Of a stretch of DNA of 64,000 nt, positions 1,991-12,552 are shown in pieces. The translations under genes were made by a program, and so were the position numbers. Origin of the DNA: a virus. Lineage: Duplodnaviria; Caudoviricetes. Numbering within the stretch: the stretch's first letter is position 1; every line of letters begins with the position of its first letter. The DNA lies in IMG/VR virus record IMGVR_UViG_2835052945_000005, positions 343 through 64,342 of that record, one strand, 5' to 3'. The notes beneath the pieces are model-generated. The model was not told the DNA's origin and ran no database searches. It saw only the letters and a list, made by a program, of their open reading frames with translations.

Positions 1991-2077
1991 GACAGATTAC
2001 TGTAATCACCTTTCACATACTGTAAAAGAAACAAGGGCAGAAAATTTAGCTCTTCTACCCTTAATTTTACGGTGGGG

Positions 2078-2305
2078 CTAGTTTCTGTCATAGGCCCAAC
2101 CGAGCCTAAATATCACGAATGGCACGATCAGTACGACGAAAAAAAACCGATAATCTTTTGTCGTAGGAATTAGGTCAGAAACATAGCCAATTTTGAATAT
2201 GCTGACCGCTCTTGAGTCGTTCTTACGAGTCGTGTACCACAACTCAGTCGATACACCAAAACCCATAATAAAACGATTGATGGTAACTGTTTTATCCACA
2301 ATCAT
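2078..2305 (-). CDS. Hypothetical small membrane protein, last gene of early operon
   Basis: 75 aa, hydrophobic C-terminal stretch; ATGA overlap with the mor-like stop. Confidence 0.5.
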   Translation of the reverse strand: MIVDKTVTINRFIMGFGVSTELWYTTRKNDSRAVSIFKIGYVSDLIPTTKDYRFFFVVLIVPFVIFRLGWAYDRN

Positions 2306-2667
2306 TTCCCCTCATCGTCGAACAGATCCAGACCAGGTTGTCGGCTTTTCATCACCCGCTTGTGGACTCGGTGAATCAGCTTTCGCAGGCCACGTTCGGT
2401 GATGCCGTATTTTGAGCTCAGTTCGGCCCAGTTGTTGCCTTTATGCTCGTTGTAAATCTGTAGATCACGAACCGCCAGCTTATAGACATAGTCACGCGGG
2501 AACGTGAAATTTTGTCCGCCAAAGTGCTCGGCCAGAAAATTAGCGACGGCGAGGCCCAACTGTTCGGCGTGTTCAACGGAACAACCATAATCGGTCGCAG
2601 TCTCTGCAACGTGATCGGCCAGCTCAGACAGCAGCTTATGGCGCTTCTCTTCCATCGTCGTGATCAT
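2302..2667 (-). CDS. Mor/C-family transcription activator
   Basis: FGGQNFTFP...RDLQIYNEHKGNNWAELSSKYGITERGLRKLI, typical Mor/C HTH. Confidence 0.9.
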   Translation of the reverse strand: MITTMEEKRHKLLSELADHVAETATDYGCSVEHAEQLGLAVANFLAEHFGGQNFTFPRDYVYKLAVRDLQIYNEHKGNNWAELSSKYGITERGLRKLIHRVHKRVMKSRQPGLDLFDDEGK

Positions 2668-2677
2668 GATTTACCCC

Positions 2678-3100
2678 TCACTCAACAGACTGGGCCTTGC
2701 GTTCGCGGGCCTGCCATTTCTTTAGTGATTCGATAACACGGCTGGCCTGGTCTGTGCTGAGCCAGTCCAACCGCCCGACGCCTGTGATCCTGTGCGCATA
2801 CGCATTGATTGCACGTTCAGAACTGTCCCGAATGTAGCCCTCATCGGCCATTTCAAGCCATAGCGCACGTATTTTCTTAGACTGTGCGTCAGTGGCTGTG
2901 ATCTTATGAGGCTTGGCACTTTTTACTTTAAAACCCAACTGCTTCATTGCATCTAAAACCTGTTGCAGTTGCTGATCGGTCATATCCTTAGTGCTGTTGA
3001 CGCCAGCATAGTTAATCAGGAACTGGCGATAGGTATCGTCATCCAGTTTGCGATCGCGTTTTGCAACGTGGATGAGTTTAACGAGTTGGTTTCTGTTCAT
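2678..3100 (-). CDS. Mu gp16/GemA-like regulatory protein
   Basis: LVKLIHVAKRDRKLDDDTYR...KIRALW...WLS...VIESLKKW; start trimmed to ATG 3100. Confidence 0.85.
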   Translation of the reverse strand: MNRNQLVKLIHVAKRDRKLDDDTYRQFLINYAGVNSTKDMTDQQLQQVLDAMKQLGFKVKSAKPHKITATDAQSKKIRALWLEMADEGYIRDSSERAINAYAHRITGVGRLDWLSTDQASRVIESLKKWQARERKAQSVE

Positions 3101-6240: not shown

Positions 6241-7404
6241 TTAAACCCCCTTAACCACATCGGCATTCACCACCGGCACACCGATATCAGCGGCCAGATT
6301 CATCGCGGCGATCAGCAGATTGCCGACGGCCAGTGGGTACAGCAGGCTGACGATGCTTTTACGTCCGCCGACCTGATTACTCAGCCGGGCGCGGATGGCG
6401 TCGATCGCGCTGGCGTCCAGCACGTCCGCCAACTGCTTGCCCGCCCGCGTGAATTTGAACTGGAGGTAATCCTCCAGCGCGTTATCCAGCGGCAGCAGTT
6501 CGACCACTTCGCAACGCTGGACGACTTCGCGCACCTCCATATTGCGCTCGGACAGCTTCACCGCCAGTTCCTGCTGGCCGATTAGCACGATGGAAATCAG
6601 CTTTTTAAACCCGCTTTCCAGCTCAAAAAACCTTTTCAGGTGCTTGAGCGTGGGGATCGGCAGGCTGTGGGCCTCTTCAATCACAAGAACATGGCTATAG
6701 CCTGCCGCGCAGCTCTCTTTCAGTACACGGTGCAACTGGCGGAACCGTGCGTCCTGACTGCGTTTAATGCCCTCCAGCGGTGCGATAGTGCTGATTATTG
6801 CCTCCGCGATCGCCGCTGCCTTCAGCGTCTTGCCCTTGACGTCGTTGTCCTCCATCGCCAGCACATACGGCTCGATAACGATAATCGGGGCGTTTTCGCG
6901 GTTAATGCGTTCAATCAGATCCCGGCGCAGTGTGGATTTACCCGCCCCGGACTCGCCAATCACCGCCATAAAGCCGCCGTGACGCGCAGTCTGATACAGC
7001 GCTTCACGCACATAGCGGATATCCGGCGTGGTAAATACATCCTCCGAGCCTTGCAGATCGTCGGCGAACGGGTCGCGGAACAGCCCGAACGCCTTTTTTG
7101 CCGCTGGACGCAGCACCTGTTTTTTCAGTAGCATATTTTCGTCCTCTTCATTTGCGTGTAGCGGGACACCGGTACCGGCAGCGGCCTCATCCGCAGCCGG
7201 TACCACCTCAAATGCCCCTGTTGGATCGATACCGCGACCAGACAACTCGCGGGTGATATTTTGCCGAATGCTGTCGGCGTTTCGTTTCGGCCAGATGCCG
7301 TGATTAACCAGTTGCGCGATAGCCGGCTGCGATATGCCCGCCGCAGCGGCGAGCGCGCCCTGATTGATACCGTGTGCCGCCATAATGTGTTTCAGTTGCA
7401 GCAT
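6241..7404 (-). CDS. Transposition AAA+ ATPase (MuB analogue) with N-terminal HTH
   Basis: Walker A GESGAGKS, Walker B LVIEEAH; N-terminal GINQGALAAAAGISQPAIAQLVN; follows transposase. Confidence 0.9.
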   Translation of the reverse strand: MLQLKHIMAAHGINQGALAAAAGISQPAIAQLVNHGIWPKRNADSIRQNITRELSGRGIDPTGAFEVVPAADEAAAGTGVPLHANEEDENMLLKKQVLRPAAKKAFGLFRDPFADDLQGSEDVFTTPDIRYVREALYQTARHGGFMAVIGESGAGKSTLRRDLIERINRENAPIIVIEPYVLAMEDNDVKGKTLKAAAIAEAIISTIAPLEGIKRSQDARFRQLHRVLKESCAAGYSHVLVIEEAHSLPIPTLKHLKRFFELESGFKKLISIVLIGQQELAVKLSERNMEVREVVQRCEVVELLPLDNALEDYLQFKFTRAGKQLADVLDASAIDAIRARLSNQVGGRKSIVSLLYPLAVGNLLIAAMNLAADIGVPVVNADVVKGV

Positions 7405-7414
7405 GTTTCCTCCC

Positions 7415-9184
7415 TTAGCGTATGCCGACGGCATTAGCGGCGGCCGGTGCGACCATCAGTGCACTGACAACTGTCTCGATATCGTCAGCCGATATGCCGT
7501 CGGGGTATTGCGCGACCAGTTGCCGGTAATGCTGCGCCGTCCAGGGCTGTCCCTTTGATGACAGTCGCTCGCGCAGTTGCTTGGCGGCTTCGACATGAGT
7601 GAGTGGGCGTTGCTCGATACGCGGGCCGCGAACGTTCGACGCCGTGCCGCGTTTCGGCAGGTAGGCGGGTAACGCGGCGTCATCAATTGTGCGGTATGGG
7701 TCGAATTGCCCGCCGAACGGCACAGCCTTAGCTTTGCGCGATGCAACTGCCGCCTCTGCTGAATCCGTGCCCGTCACCAGTTGTTCAATCTGCTGGTTAA
7801 CGTGCTGGGTTACTGTGTCAGCCGGTTTCTTGTAACTTTCGCCGATGATCGCGGCATTCGTTGAGAAGCCGAATTCGTTCTCTGCCACCTCTTCGATAAG
7901 ATGAAATACTTCGTGGCCATCTTCGCCAGTCAGCACTATCTGTGCCGCGTCTGTACGCCACGGATTACTTGTGACCATGACAGACTCGCCAACCATGACG
8001 GACGGCACCGTTGACACATCGTACTTGCGGCCCTGAAACGAGATTTCGAGCGTCGGCTGAACCTTGCGGCGTTCCGGCGCAGCGATGGCCAGTTCGCGGC
8101 AGATGTCCACAGACGGCGCTTTAATCAGTTGTTCAGTTGTGATGCGCAGCCAGATGTCGTTCCGTGTTTGGCCGTGGCGGCTGTGTATCGCCGTCGCGTT
8201 AAAATGGCTGCGCCAGCGCGCCGCCATTGCGTTCAGTTCGTCCAGGCTGCTGACCGCGACGAACTTTAGCCCCGGTTCGAACTTGCGTTCGATAATGTCA
8301 CGGGCTTTCTCAACCTGCCCGGTAGCACGGGCATTCCCTGCTCTGTGGGCGATGATTTCAATGCCCAGGGATTTGCACAGATTGCGCGTCATGGCGGCGG
8401 TGTTGGCCGAGCCTGGGTCCATAAACAGCACTTTAGGTACGCCGTGCAATACGTCAGCGCTGCCGCGCTCTTGCATCGCATTGATTAGTACCGAACAGAG
8501 GTTTTCGCCGGATTCCGCGCCCATCACATACTCAACGTAAATCCAGCCGCTGGTGTGATCGGTGATCTCGTAGCTCCATACCCGGTCATTCGCTATCCGC
8601 GCCAGATTTTTGGGCTTGTTTTTATAGAACTGGTCACTGTTCATTACTTGCAATCCCGTCGTTTTCTTGCCGTTTTGCAGGTAATACAGGGTGCAGAGCG
8701 AGGCATCAATCAGCCAGACGTGATTCGGATGCAGGCTGGCCAACCGCGTGCTGGGTTCCGGCGCCATCAACTGATCGGGGTGAACGCCGTAGCCGCGCAT
8801 CGCGCGGATAATGGCGCTTTCCGATAACGGACGAATCTCGCCGGTAGCCTGATCGATGAATTCGGCGGTGATCATGTTGTTTGCCCGCAACTCCGCGACG
8901 GCGTCGGCAACCGAATACAGGCGTTTGCCGTTCTTACGGGTAGACTCAGTCAGCAGCGCGGAAATGGTCAGCGCCTCCTCGCGGGATAGCGCGGTTTTGC
9001 CGGCATCGGCGCGGCGTTTGCGGGGCAGTTTCGGCCGTATTTCGCCGAGTTTTCTTATCAACGTGGCGCGCGACATGTGTAACTCCTCGCAGGCGGCCTG
9101 ATAAATCGGCTCTTTATTGCCATGTCCGGCGGCGTCAACAGCCGAAGCAATACTAACCAGACGATCAATTAATACCGGGTTCAT
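7415..9184 (-). CDS. DDE transposase (MuA analogue)
   Basis: 589 aa; WLIDAS, FMDPGS, QVEKARDIIE catalytic segments. Confidence 0.92.
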   Translation of the reverse strand: MNPVLIDRLVSIASAVDAAGHGNKEPIYQAACEELHMSRATLIRKLGEIRPKLPRKRRADAGKTALSREEALTISALLTESTRKNGKRLYSVADAVAELRANNMITAEFIDQATGEIRPLSESAIIRAMRGYGVHPDQLMAPEPSTRLASLHPNHVWLIDASLCTLYYLQNGKKTTGLQVMNSDQFYKNKPKNLARIANDRVWSYEITDHTSGWIYVEYVMGAESGENLCSVLINAMQERGSADVLHGVPKVLFMDPGSANTAAMTRNLCKSLGIEIIAHRAGNARATGQVEKARDIIERKFEPGLKFVAVSSLDELNAMAARWRSHFNATAIHSRHGQTRNDIWLRITTEQLIKAPSVDICRELAIAAPERRKVQPTLEISFQGRKYDVSTVPSVMVGESVMVTSNPWRTDAAQIVLTGEDGHEVFHLIEEVAENEFGFSTNAAIIGESYKKPADTVTQHVNQQIEQLVTGTDSAEAAVASRKAKAVPFGGQFDPYRTIDDAALPAYLPKRGTASNVRGPRIEQRPLTHVEAAKQLRERLSSKGQPWTAQHYRQLVAQYPDGISADDIETVVSALMVAPAAANAVGIR

Positions 9185-10421: not shown

Positions 10422-10660
10422 TAACGCGCCTCCATTGGATGCAGAAAGCGGGAAACCTCATAGTCGGAAAGATGCACAGGGCCGTTATCGTCAGGGCCGT
10501 TCAATCCGCCAAATACATCAACATTGATAACTGTCTGTCCCTTGCGGCCATATGCAGTAGGCATGCGACTGACTACCGTGGCGCTGAGTAGCTCAGTAGA
10601 TTTTCCCAATGTAGGCTGTAATAAAACGCGCATACCGGGTTTTAGAGCGCTAGGTTTCAT
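10421..10660 (-). CDS. Hypothetical protein
   Basis: 79 aa, stop/start overlaps on both sides. Confidence 0.65.
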   Translation of the reverse strand: MKPSALKPGMRVLLQPTLGKSTELLSATVVSRMPTAYGRKGQTVINVDVFGGLNGPDDNGPVHLSDYEVSRFLHPMEAR

Positions 10661-11139
10661 TGTTCAAGCTCCAGTTGAGGGTTGGCGTGGGCCTTCACGT
10701 TGCCGTGATGCCAGGCGACGCTCTGTAAATGGTTGGTCAACGCCTGTACGGTGTTGTCCTGCGTTGCCCGACCGGCGTAAAAATCGGTCAGCAGTTTCAT
10801 GGCATCGGCAAACGAACCATGCAGTTCGCTGACGTCCGTCGCCTGCAAGGCGCGACCGGTGGGGATGTCGATCAGCAATTTGCCGCCGCTGGCGGCGATC
10901 CAGCGGGTGACATAGTCGATACCGCAGGCGGCTTCATATGGGCGGATCAGGTTGGCGGGCATGCGGCCATTTTGCAGCCATTTGTATAACGTCCAGTGGT
11001 CGGACAATCCCATCAAATCGGCAACCTGTTCTACCGAACGGTTCAGGCGCGCGCGGGCATGGTCCTTGCACAGTTCCAGCGCGTTACGTAGGCCACTGGG
11101 CTGGATACGTTTCCAATTGCAGCGTGTGGTTGGAATCAT
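10657..11139 (-). CDS. Phage regulatory protein (CII-like HTH)
   Basis: RSVEQVADLMGLSDHWTLYKWLQNGRMP; start trimmed to ATG 11139. Confidence 0.7.
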   Translation of the reverse strand: MIPTTRCNWKRIQPSGLRNALELCKDHARARLNRSVEQVADLMGLSDHWTLYKWLQNGRMPANLIRPYEAACGIDYVTRWIAASGGKLLIDIPTGRALQATDVSELHGSFADAMKLLTDFYAGRATQDNTVQALTNHLQSVAWHHGNVKAHANPQLELEQ

Positions 11140-11194: not shown

Positions 11195-11440
11195 CTAACC
11201 CGGTTGACCGCCTGACAATAGCGGCTCGTTGCCATCGCCGGGCCGTAAACCCAGCGCAATGGCGATACGCCGGTTTTTGCCGCGCAGACCGCGCTGTCTG
11301 CTGCCCTGTAGCAACTGCGCCACGGTTTCACGGGGTACGCCGTGCAGACGGGCAAACTCGCTTTGACTGATACCGTGGGCGATCAACCATTCCCGTGCCG
11401 ATGCCGGGGTTTGCGGATACGGAATGTAAATACGATTCAT
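11195..11440 (-). CDS. Ner-like DNA-binding protein (second paralogue)
   Basis: AREWLIAHGISQSEFARLHGV...GLRGKNRRIAIALGL; start ATG 11440. Confidence 0.75.
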   Translation of the reverse strand: MNRIYIPYPQTPASAREWLIAHGISQSEFARLHGVPRETVAQLLQGSRQRGLRGKNRRIAIALGLRPGDGNEPLLSGGQPG

Positions 11441-11445
11441 ATCTG

Positions 11446-11898
11446 CTACCCTTTGTGTGATTTTATGGAGGCCAACAACCATGCGCGAAAGCGAATTGGA
11501 ACTGCGGCGAGAAATCGCCGAATTGCGCGCCAAAATCGAGGTGGTCGACGACTGGGCGACCGGGATGCAGCGAGTGCTGGCCGATGTATTGCCGCCGCTG
11601 CTGCGCGGTCATCCGCAAATTGCCCAGATCCATCAGCGGTTGCAGGCCGCCGATCGGCGCTATGAAGTGTTGCAGGCTGACCCGTCAGCGGCAGAGCCGG
11701 GCGTTCGTGCCGGCCTGTATGAACCCGGTAGGGTGCTGTATCGCTTGTTTGGCATTTATGGCGTGTGGTCGGATGTTGATCCTGACGCAAGCACTGATAA
11801 ATCTTCCGGGCCTGATCGACCGTGAATAGCCGCTGGCCGTTGCAGCGGGTTGATTCCGTAATCAACGCGCGAATGAACTGCTCTTCGGTGGTGTTCAT
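11446..11898 (-). CDS. ORF whose first 30 residues resemble transposase residues 66-95
   Basis: 15/30 identities by manual alignment; ATGA overlap with ner-like stop; remainder is antisense to 11481-11825. Confidence 0.45.
   Translation of the reverse strand: MNTTEEQFIRALITESTRCNGQRLFTVDQARKIYQCLRQDQHPTTRHKCQTSDTAPYRVHTGRHERPALPLTGQPATLHSADRRPATADGSGQFADDRAAAAAIHRPALAASRSPSRRPPRFWRAIRRFLAAVPIRFRAWLLASIKSHKG
11481..11825 (+). CDS. Hypothetical protein on the strand opposite to the early operon
   Basis: 114 aa; RBS GGAGG 8 nt before ATG 11481; N-terminal coiled coil. Confidence 0.7.
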   Translation: MRESELELRREIAELRAKIEVVDDWATGMQRVLADVLPPLLRGHPQIAQIHQRLQAADRRYEVLQADPSAAEPGVRAGLYEPGRVLYRLFGIYGVWSDVDPDASTDKSSGPDRP

Positions 11899-12116
11899 GC
11901 GGCGATCACCCCGTCCTTGAGCCCCAGGGTCACGGCGATGCGGTGCGACTCTCCGAAGCGGCATTTATGCCGGGGTGAGACGTCGTCGTCGTTCAGGATG
12001 TTGTAAACCAGGTTGGCGTTAAAACCGTATTTGCGCGCCAGTTCTGAGGTTGCTATGCCCTGACGGGCCAGTTCGGATTTAACCTGGGCACGGGTTTTGA
12101 TGGTTCGTTTTGTCAT
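11895..12116 (-). CDS. Ner-like DNA-binding protein (BcepMu gp16 type), first early gene
   Basis: KTRAQVKSELARQGIATSELARKYG...CRFGESHRIAVTLGLKDG; divergent from repressor. Confidence 0.85.
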   Translation of the reverse strand: MTKRTIKTRAQVKSELARQGIATSELARKYGFNANLVYNILNDDDVSPRHKCRFGESHRIAVTLGLKDGVIAA

Positions 12117-12173: not shown

Positions 12174-12202
12174 ATTATGGGTACAATTGTACCCATTGTC
12201 AA
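12174..12202 (-). promoter_or_regulatory. Early promoter (TTGACA-N17-CATAAT) overlapped by a perfect 20-bp palindromic operator
   Basis: -35 at 12202-12197, -10 at 12179-12174 on minus strand; ATGGGTACAATTGTACCCAT at 12177-12196. Confidence 0.8.
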
Positions 12203-12210
12203 GGTGGGTT

Positions 12211-12552
12211 ATGGGTTCATTTGGTGACAGGTTAAAAGCAGAGCGAGAACGGCTTGGTATGAACCAGACGGATTTCGCAGAATTGGCGGGGACTACTAGG
12301 AAGTCTCAGTTTAATTACGAGTCAAATTTGAGGCGACCCGATGCTGACTACTTAGCTGCCGTAGCTGCTGCGGGAGTTGATGTTCTGTATGTATTAACAG
12401 GGCAACGGTCTATGCCTGTTGAATCACAGCTGTCTACTGAGCAGCAGCGGCTACTGGAGGCATTTAATACAATGACGCCGGAGCAGAAAAAAACAGTACT
12501 CGACGTTGGTCGGCTCCTTACCCAGCCCAAACCAGACGGTAAGGCCGGCTGA
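12211..12552 (+). CDS. Prophage repressor, XRE-family HTH
   Basis: FGDRLKAERERLGMNQTDFAELAGTTRKSQFNYESNLRRPDADYL; no S24 peptidase domain. Confidence 0.88.
   Translation: MGSFGDRLKAERERLGMNQTDFAELAGTTRKSQFNYESNLRRPDADYLAAVAAAGVDVLYVLTGQRSMPVESQLSTEQQRLLEAFNTMTPEQKKTVLDVGRLLTQPKPDGKAG

Follow-up and report, generated by a model that had tools for sequence, protein, structure and literature searches.

A conserved early gene of BcepMu-like transposable prophages begins with a module homologous to part of the transposase DNA-binding region

Introduction

What is a small open reading frame that resembles a piece of the phage's own transposase doing in the early operon, directly behind a ner-like gene? 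The question arises from a BcepMu-like transposable prophage in the window (the whole stretch of 64,000 nt that was analyzed). At both the DNA and the protein level, the region matches the Burkholderia phage BcepMu and its relatives. Little is known of how transposable phages other than Mu couple transposase activity to the decision between lysis and lysogeny. Here we describe this open reading frame, which we call X, its relatives, and what it might do. Loci and proteins are referred to by our own handles (L006, P0131 and so on).

Results

Gene organization of the early region

The transposition genes of the prophage are on the minus strand and include a MuB-like ATPase (6241-7434) and a transposase of 589 aa (7415..9184). 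The transposase is of the BcepMu DDE (rve) type, as judged by Pfam rve, phrog_310 (E 2e-128) and alignment with BcepMu gp09, and its closest relative is an integrase of Brenneria populi (94% identical). Upstream of it lie a gp10-like gene, a winged-helix gene, a 79-aa gene, a gene for a CII-like activator, and two ner-like genes, ner2 and ner1. The CII-like gene (10657..11139) is similar to BcepMu gp13 (phrog_101, E 1.5e-22, and a DNA match) and is the next early gene past ner2. ner2 (11195..11440; phrog_925, E 9e-16) encodes a second Ner-like helix-turn-helix (HTH) protein. ner1 (11895..12116; phrog_925, E 3e-20) encodes a Ner/Cro-like HTH protein and is the first gene after the early promoter.

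The putative early promoter is a pE-like sigma-70 site on the minus strand (TTGACA-17-CATAAT, 12174..12202), assigned by its match to the consensus (11/12). It reads into ner1 and is divergent from a putative repressor gene of the Cro/CI (XRE) type in the immunity region (12211..12552, plus strand). The class of this gene is assigned by position, its positional match in BcepMu being gp17, which is annotated as a cro/cI-type repressor. The repressor open reading frame was listed from a TTG at 12187, and the ATG at 12211 is our reading of the sequence. Between 12158 and 12202, the early operon and the repressor gene have promoter-like sites (minus strand, 11/12, and plus strand, 9/12, respectively) that are face to face and overlap within 45 bp. 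These 45 bp are likely the operator region of the switch.

X (11446..11898, minus strand) encodes 150 aa followed by a TAG stop. Its start codon at 11898 overlaps the TGA of ner1 as ATGA, as a preliminary description of the locus had noted; the Shine-Dalgarno-like sequence GGGGTGATC ends 5 nt upstream of the ATG, and X is translationally coupled to ner1. At the other end, the ATG of ner2 begins 5 nt past the X stop. A conserved gene of 114 aa on the plus strand (11481..11825), in the same orientation as the repressor gene, is antisense to X. Codons 1-24 of X are free of this gene. X matches no Pfam or PHROG family, is only 150 aa long, and has no rve/DDE catalytic core; a PDB sequence search with an X profile found no chain that covers X.

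Two candidate extensions of X were considered and rejected. One was a fusion of ner1 and X by programmed -1 frameshifting, similar to OrfAB of IS3. The last 22 codons of ner1 contain no X XXY YYZ heptamer, there is no ner gene upstream of X in loci of the L006 type, and in L011 the X frame is stopped 12 codons upstream. The other was a weak in-frame similarity to the transposase upstream of the X methionine, in the 3' end of ner1. This stretch is rich in Arg and Pro and is not conserved in L011, and we judged the similarity to be due to chance.

ner1 and ner2, both phrog_925, flank the X/antisense pair in the window. In the L006-type loci, the sole ner gene is one of 81 aa to the left of the antisense gene. 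In BcepMu, L033 and L034, the sole ner gene is the one that adjoins the repressor. In the window, L011 and L018, the early region has the appearance of a hybrid between these two layouts.

The X module is a paralogue of part of the transposase

The first 30 residues of X align without gaps to residues 66-95 of the transposase, and 15 of the 30 are identical, in agreement with the preliminary description. That description also argued from synonymous codons that the similarity is at the level of protein. The argument stands, with a corrected count: nine of the 15 identical residues, not eight, use different codons (nucleotide identity, 52/90). The 30-residue match had been placed outside the antisense gene, and this is almost wholly so, about 17 nt of it overlapping.

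A tblastn comparison of the transposase with the 1.1-kb X region gave an E of 8e-6. A profile made only from X (the small open reading frames of nine loci) was run against all six frames of the whole 4.1-Mb genome. X itself scored 2.6e-18, the best non-self match was the cognate transposase (E 6.5e-8), and the third (7.5e-4) was the transposase of another BcepMu-like prophage, which lies on contig C12. Matches in this genome-wide search were limited to X and the two transposases, and the repressor open reading frame (12211-12552) was without the motif. Comparing the X family (nine sequences) with 41 transposases, hhalign gave a probability of 94.8% (E 5.3e-8). With 14 X sequences against the transposase family, the probability was 95.7% (E 8.6e-9) and X residues 4-37 corresponded to transposase residues 67-102. 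All 41 transposases and all 14 X modules have an arginine in the loop (R83 and R18, respectively). The X module is a genuine homologue of part of the DNA-binding region of the transposase.

Predicted structures indicate which part. The AlphaFold2 model of transposase residues 1-160 (41-sequence alignment; pLDDT 83) has a three-helix domain, HTH1 (3-49), then a basic linker, and then a second domain, with structured elements up to residue 140. In the model, the second domain consists of a helix (68-80), a loop with a beta bridge (82/88), a helix (92-101), a beta hairpin (108-119) and a last helix (122-132). The counterpart of the X module, parent-like in character, is the segment of residues 67-102 (8879..8986, minus strand), that is, the first helix, the basic loop and the second helix of this second HTH domain. 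The AlphaFold2 model of X, limited by a shallow alignment, has helices at residues 5-16 and 27-41 joined by a bridged loop (pLDDT 78-90), and is disordered from 45 to 114 (pLDDT < 50). The similarity between X and the transposase stops after helix 2. Together with the model, this end point indicates that X has counterparts of the first two helices and of the basic loop between them, and none of the hairpin or the third helix. Lacking the third helix, the module cannot be assumed to fold by itself or to bind DNA. We conclude that the module and the first two helices (67-102) of the second HTH domain of the transposase are paralogues that diverged long ago.

A Foldseek search of the PDB with the N-terminus of the transposase returned no significant match, and only weak rows for TnsB, MuA and IstA. 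VIA-align placed HTH1 among homeodomain-like folds, with Z of about 5 for TnsB (8aa5) and MuA (4fcy). The weak fold matches were to TnsB (7svw/8aa5) and to residues 106-238 of MuA (4fcy), again with Z of about 5. The modeled N-terminus is thus consistent with the two-part end-binding regions of MuA (I-beta/I-gamma) and TnsB, a likeness short of proof. The piece carried by X would be half of the second end-binding HTH domain, in the position of MuA I-gamma and TnsB DBD2 as assigned through these weak fold matches.

The module heads a conserved family of early genes

The module (about 41 residues, predicted helix-loop-helix; 11776..11898, minus strand) is conserved. It occurs in the window, in L006, L010, L011, L012, L014, L015, L016, L017, L018, L032, L033, L034 and L036, and in the called proteins P0131-P0140. 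In at least 13 BcepMu-like loci other than the window, it heads an open reading frame in the same position of the early operon. The preliminary description had asked whether relatives have such a stand-alone open reading frame after ner. They do, usually coupled to a ner-like gene and ahead of the transposase; the stop and start codons overlap or are closely spaced in L011, L014, L033, L034 and L036.

The consensus of the module is A-L-x-x-E-S-T-R-x-N-G-K/R-x-L-L-T, followed by a second amphipathic helix. Five residues (L12, S16, R18, G21 and L24) are invariant in the 14 aligned modules, and they are encoded by varied codons, including both TCN and AGC for the serine. Over a block of 21 codons that covers the motif, nucleotide identity averages 46%. 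In this block, the X frame is the only one of the six without stops and has the best score (amino acid identity of 0.38, BLOSUM62 score of 1.49 per site). Differences at the three codon positions of a 22-codon block were 366/328/467, an excess at the third (wobble) position. For the closest pairs, dN/dS over codons 1-34 was 0.4-1.0, a noisy estimate made from few changes that includes the variable residues 4-13, and thus recent purifying selection on X is not clearly shown by dN/dS. Comparisons with L006 were out of register and were set aside from this estimate.

A profile of nine modules, searched against 1.84 billion representative proteins, found ten proteins of 47 to 268 residues at E <= 1e-3. 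The motif is in nearly all of them no further than about 65 residues from the N-terminus. In the three contigs of these proteins that we describe here (L033, L034 and L036), the open reading frame is in the same slot of the early operon. In L034, it follows a ner-like gene with overlapping stop and start codons and is followed by CII-like, winged-helix and gp10-like genes, past which a partial open reading frame sits in the position of the transposase; antisense to its tail is a gene with weak similarity to BcepMu gp14. In L033, it also follows a ner-like gene, and its tail lies over an unrelated Cys-rich antisense open reading frame of 148 aa. In L036, it lies between genes for an HTH protein and a winged-helix protein, with start and stop codons overlapping, and has an ordinary-looking C-terminus of 60 residues and no credible antisense gene. 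A similarity that reached the third helix of the transposase in the L036 protein was considered and is not supported. In L033, the X-like open reading frame (2064-2744, plus strand) and the Cys-rich antisense frame (2272-2718, minus strand) overlap. The tail of the former, which P0139 and P0132 share in conserved form, and the Cys-rich frame both have the look of true proteins. Searches of 400 other genomes of the order found no stand-alone X in those searched, only transposases and weak noise.

Since this mini-gene has been kept in many related phages, we take X to represent a real, unannotated gene family. The module defines the family. In many BcepMu-like phages, its open reading frame lies just after the early promoter or a ner-like gene, with a CII-like gene and the transposase further downstream. 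Within the early operon, this N-terminal module is what stays constant, and lineages differ in what comes after it. By these comparative criteria, X is a genuine early gene that codes for protein in this BcepMu-like prophage.

The tail of X is the antisense reading of a repressor-side gene

Homologues of the 114-aa gene fall into five clusters at 53-63% identity, with more at 39-40%. Differences in this gene are most frequent at the third codon position, by far, and least frequent at the second (for example, 11/9/34 for L006 versus L010), and its product has the invariant motifs E-I-A-E-L-R-A-K, D-D-W-A and L-L-R-G-H-P. The protein has no match in Pfam or PHROGs and no usable lead in the ESM Atlas, and hhalign found no similarity between its family and BcepMu gp14. 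Single-protein locus searches found nothing with the 114-aa protein and one distant partial match (L009) with ner1. No sigma-70 promoter was found for the gene in the 40-nt gap to ner2, and its transcription may depend on CII, from a pRE-like promoter. A repressor-oriented antisense gene downstream of a CII-like activator gene recalls lambda pRE, which reads antisense through cro.

The wobble position of X is the second, least variable position of the plus-strand gene, indicating that the overlap is selected for the plus-strand protein and not for the tail of X. We conclude that in the window the tail of X (about 110 residues, predicted to be disordered) is the antisense reading of a conserved gene on the repressor side.

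The frame is nevertheless usually open. X runs for 142-155 aa, across the whole antisense gene, in eight of nine P0007-linked loci, and in relatives it ends on a TGA that overlaps the ATG of the antisense gene (TCATG). When the codons of the antisense gene were permuted synonymously, the chance of an open X frame was 0.04-0.55 per locus; that of at least five of six lineages being open was about 0.01, a figure that treats the lineages as independent and so overstates the case. Shorter tails occur in L012 (119 aa) and in L032/P0131 (81 aa, in a shifted frame). Because these two stop early, the tail is dispensable and not essential to the X family. It may be kept open for a reason that operates in cis, such as avoiding polarity or coupling translation to ner2.

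Could such a role in cis be the entire function of X? Ribosomes moving from 11898 over the 350-nt antisense stretch would keep Rho-dependent polarity or antisense pairing from setting in and would link translation of X to that of ner2; the peptide would have no function in trans. The frequency of open frames fits this explanation, as do a tail whose sequence is not under selection of its own and the location of the X stop, at the start codon of the antisense gene in relatives and next to the ner2 ATG in the window. However, the early stops in L012 and L032 do not fit, nor does L036, in which the module is present without an antisense gene. Translation alone also leaves unexplained why the amino acids of the module are conserved across lineages and homologous to the transposase. 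We consider this explanation unlikely.

The regular pairing of X with the 114-aa gene suggests another alternative. Wherever DNA downstream of a homologue of the 114-aa gene was available (L006/7/8, L010, L011, L012, L014, L015, L016, L017 and L018), there is a minus-strand open reading frame with the motif, starting just beyond the stop of that homologue. The arrangement is kept in ten loci, with the antisense gene down to 39% identity. The 114-aa protein could bind the second HTH domain of the transposase in lysogens; on induction, X would titrate this protein and X mRNA would silence its gene. The strict co-occurrence in all ten loci with downstream DNA, the convergent, overlapping layout, and the repressor-like orientation of the 114-aa gene are all in keeping with such a decoy. 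However, the co-occurrence is biased because the loci were found by way of the 114-aa gene, and some X-like modules are paired with unrelated antisense genes (L033, L034) or have no antisense gene at all (L036). We think that a decoy of this kind is quite improbable.

X travels with the immunity region

The distribution of X among close relatives separates it from the transposase. A contig of B. populi subsp. brevivirga (L018) is 99% identical to the window over the stretch ner1-X-antisense-ner2, and its transposase is 94% identical. In two assemblies (L019/L020; Logan SRR19352540 / SRR19352539), the transposase is 98% identical to that of the window, the immunity region is different, and X is absent. 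X was likewise not found in BcepMu or in the C12 prophage of the same genome. Since near-identical transposases occur without X, X is not required for transposition. Because L018 shares both the region and X, and L019/L020 do not, X belongs to the immunity/early-control module. X thus travels with the immunity region and not with the transposase. L019 and L020 also display modular exchange of an immunity/early-control block between near-identical transposition modules.

The C12 prophage (L005:7400-11200) has a transposase 67% identical to that of the window, and its early region consists of repressor, ner, winged-helix, gp10-like and transposase genes. X, the antisense gene and the CII-like gene are missing from this early region. 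In a DNA search of 60 related genomes, the genome of the window itself was the sole match.

The co-variation of X with its cognate transposase that the preliminary description had raised was not seen in any of four pairs. The L006-type transposase has drifted to S-A-R-R-N-E-K and its X keeps S-T-R-R-D-G-R. This transposase scores 9.5 bits against the X profile and is the one least like its own small open reading frame.

The region is mosaic, with two ner genes and with differing immunity regions beside near-identical transposases. X has only part of a domain, the similarity ending after helix 2. Both features would suit a non-functional relic of a truncated or duplicated 5' end of the transposase gene, left behind when sequences recombined or the plus-strand gene was inserted; the preliminary description had offered a version of this, with truncation by an insertion at 11481. 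However, the conserved arrangement described above speaks against that origin. The module keeps its own methionine, its frame and its invariant residues in loci where the flanking gene is at 39-40% identity; the block has on average only 46% nucleotide identity, yet it is free of stops in the X frame; and there is no transposase HTH1 or linker upstream. As judged from these sequences, a relic is very unlikely, and the comparative data lead us to reject it. They lead us also to reject chance similarity in the antisense frame of a GC-rich gene, which we regard as extremely improbable: the match is indeed short (30-36 residues) and the tail is, as to selection, an antisense artifact, but the E values are low locally (8e-6), genome-wide (6.5e-8) and between profiles (8.6e-9), and the motif is mostly outside the antisense gene.

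Discussion

The explanation that we favor, with somewhat better than even confidence, is that X is a real early gene with a transposase-derived module, that it is linked to immunity, and, less surely, that its role is regulatory. The module might act in trans as a small regulator, through a surface that it shares with the transposase and that is centered on the invariant loop arginine. It would then compete for, or modulate, whatever this part of the transposase contacts, which could be the DNA backbone at the phage ends or a partner protein. In this way, the module could link the lysis-lysogeny switch to transposition. We offer a trans-acting role through this shared surface as a possibility, and a rather doubtful one. 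The rest of the probability is divided among a role in translation alone, a partnership with the antisense-encoded protein, and some function of the module that has nothing to do with these. Simple competition for binding to the ends is disfavored by the models, in which X has the first two helices of the domain and lacks the third. We are less sure of a contribution from the long tail, the translation of which might hold ribosomes on the early mRNA throughout the antisense stretch and bring them to ner2.

More speculatively still, X and its relatives could be an immunity-linked family of "micro-transposases". Each would be half of an end-binding domain, made first from the early promoter; its competition for the contact of the invariant loop arginine would set the threshold or timing of transposition. 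The mRNA and tail would be interlocked with the antisense gene, and the switch would thus operate at the level of both protein and antisense. We hold this fuller picture only tentatively.

Regulators derived from transposases are known from other elements. Inh of Tn5, InsA of IS1 and OrfA of IS911 contain N-terminal transposase sequence and are made alongside or before the transposase. X is similar in that it is small, shares N-terminal sequence with the transposase, and could modulate the transposase, either as a competitor for DNA ends or as a partner in mixed complexes. However, Inh, InsA and OrfA are read from the transposase gene itself, from an alternative start or in the unshifted frame, and are identical to it in sequence, whereas X is a separate gene, 2.6 kb upstream of the transposase and about 45-50% identical to it. 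They also carry a whole DNA-binding or multimerization domain, whereas X has two helices of a domain and is linked to immunity.

Phage Mu has a different arrangement. Its repressor c and the I-alpha region of MuA have in common a complete winged-helix domain, which binds operators as well as the enhancer, and in Mu it is the repressor that acts as the regulator. As in Mu, a product of the immunity/early-control region of the window prophage shares ancestry with part of the N-terminal DNA-binding region of the transposase. In contrast to c, X is separate from the Cro/CI-type repressor (a plus-strand open reading frame without the motif) and is on the early strand after ner1. X also lacks a complete second HTH domain, which would consist of helix 1, loop, helix 2, beta hairpin and helix 3 (122-132).

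BcepMu itself has a pair of genes, gp15 and gp14, that resembles the X pair in layout and location. A minus-strand open reading frame follows the ner-like gp16 and overlaps a small gene in repressor orientation, and the pair sits between gp16 and the CII-like gp13. In the BcepMu sequence (L001, 8571-8970), gp14 (plus strand) and gp15 (minus strand) are annotated as overlapping antisense open reading frames 'identified by IST data'. Unlike X, gp15 has no transposase-like motif, and gp14 is not detectably related to the 114-aa gene. When BcepMu was scanned by tblastn and with the X profile, its transposase was the sole match, and the translation of gp15 was without the motif.

X also resembles the microProteins of eukaryotes, such as Id and LITTLE ZIPPER, in being short, in being derived from one domain of a larger regulator, and in that it would engage the same partners. 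The microProtein concept was developed for plants and animals and is based on dimerization domains, and we know of no role in dimerization for the segment of the transposase that is copied in X.

X represents a conserved family of early genes that is new to Pfam and PHROGs and that gene callers usually miss because it overlaps the antisense gene. The locus is a clean natural case of a long antisense overlap in which one frame is selected for its sequence and the other apparently only for openness. The module of 40 residues can be mutated without touching the overlapping gene. Because the sole recognizable part of X is a copied sub-element of the transposase DNA-binding region, there is a concrete hypothesis for its function. 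Based on the comparisons presented here, we suspect that X probably tunes transposition or the lysis-lysogeny switch in these phages.
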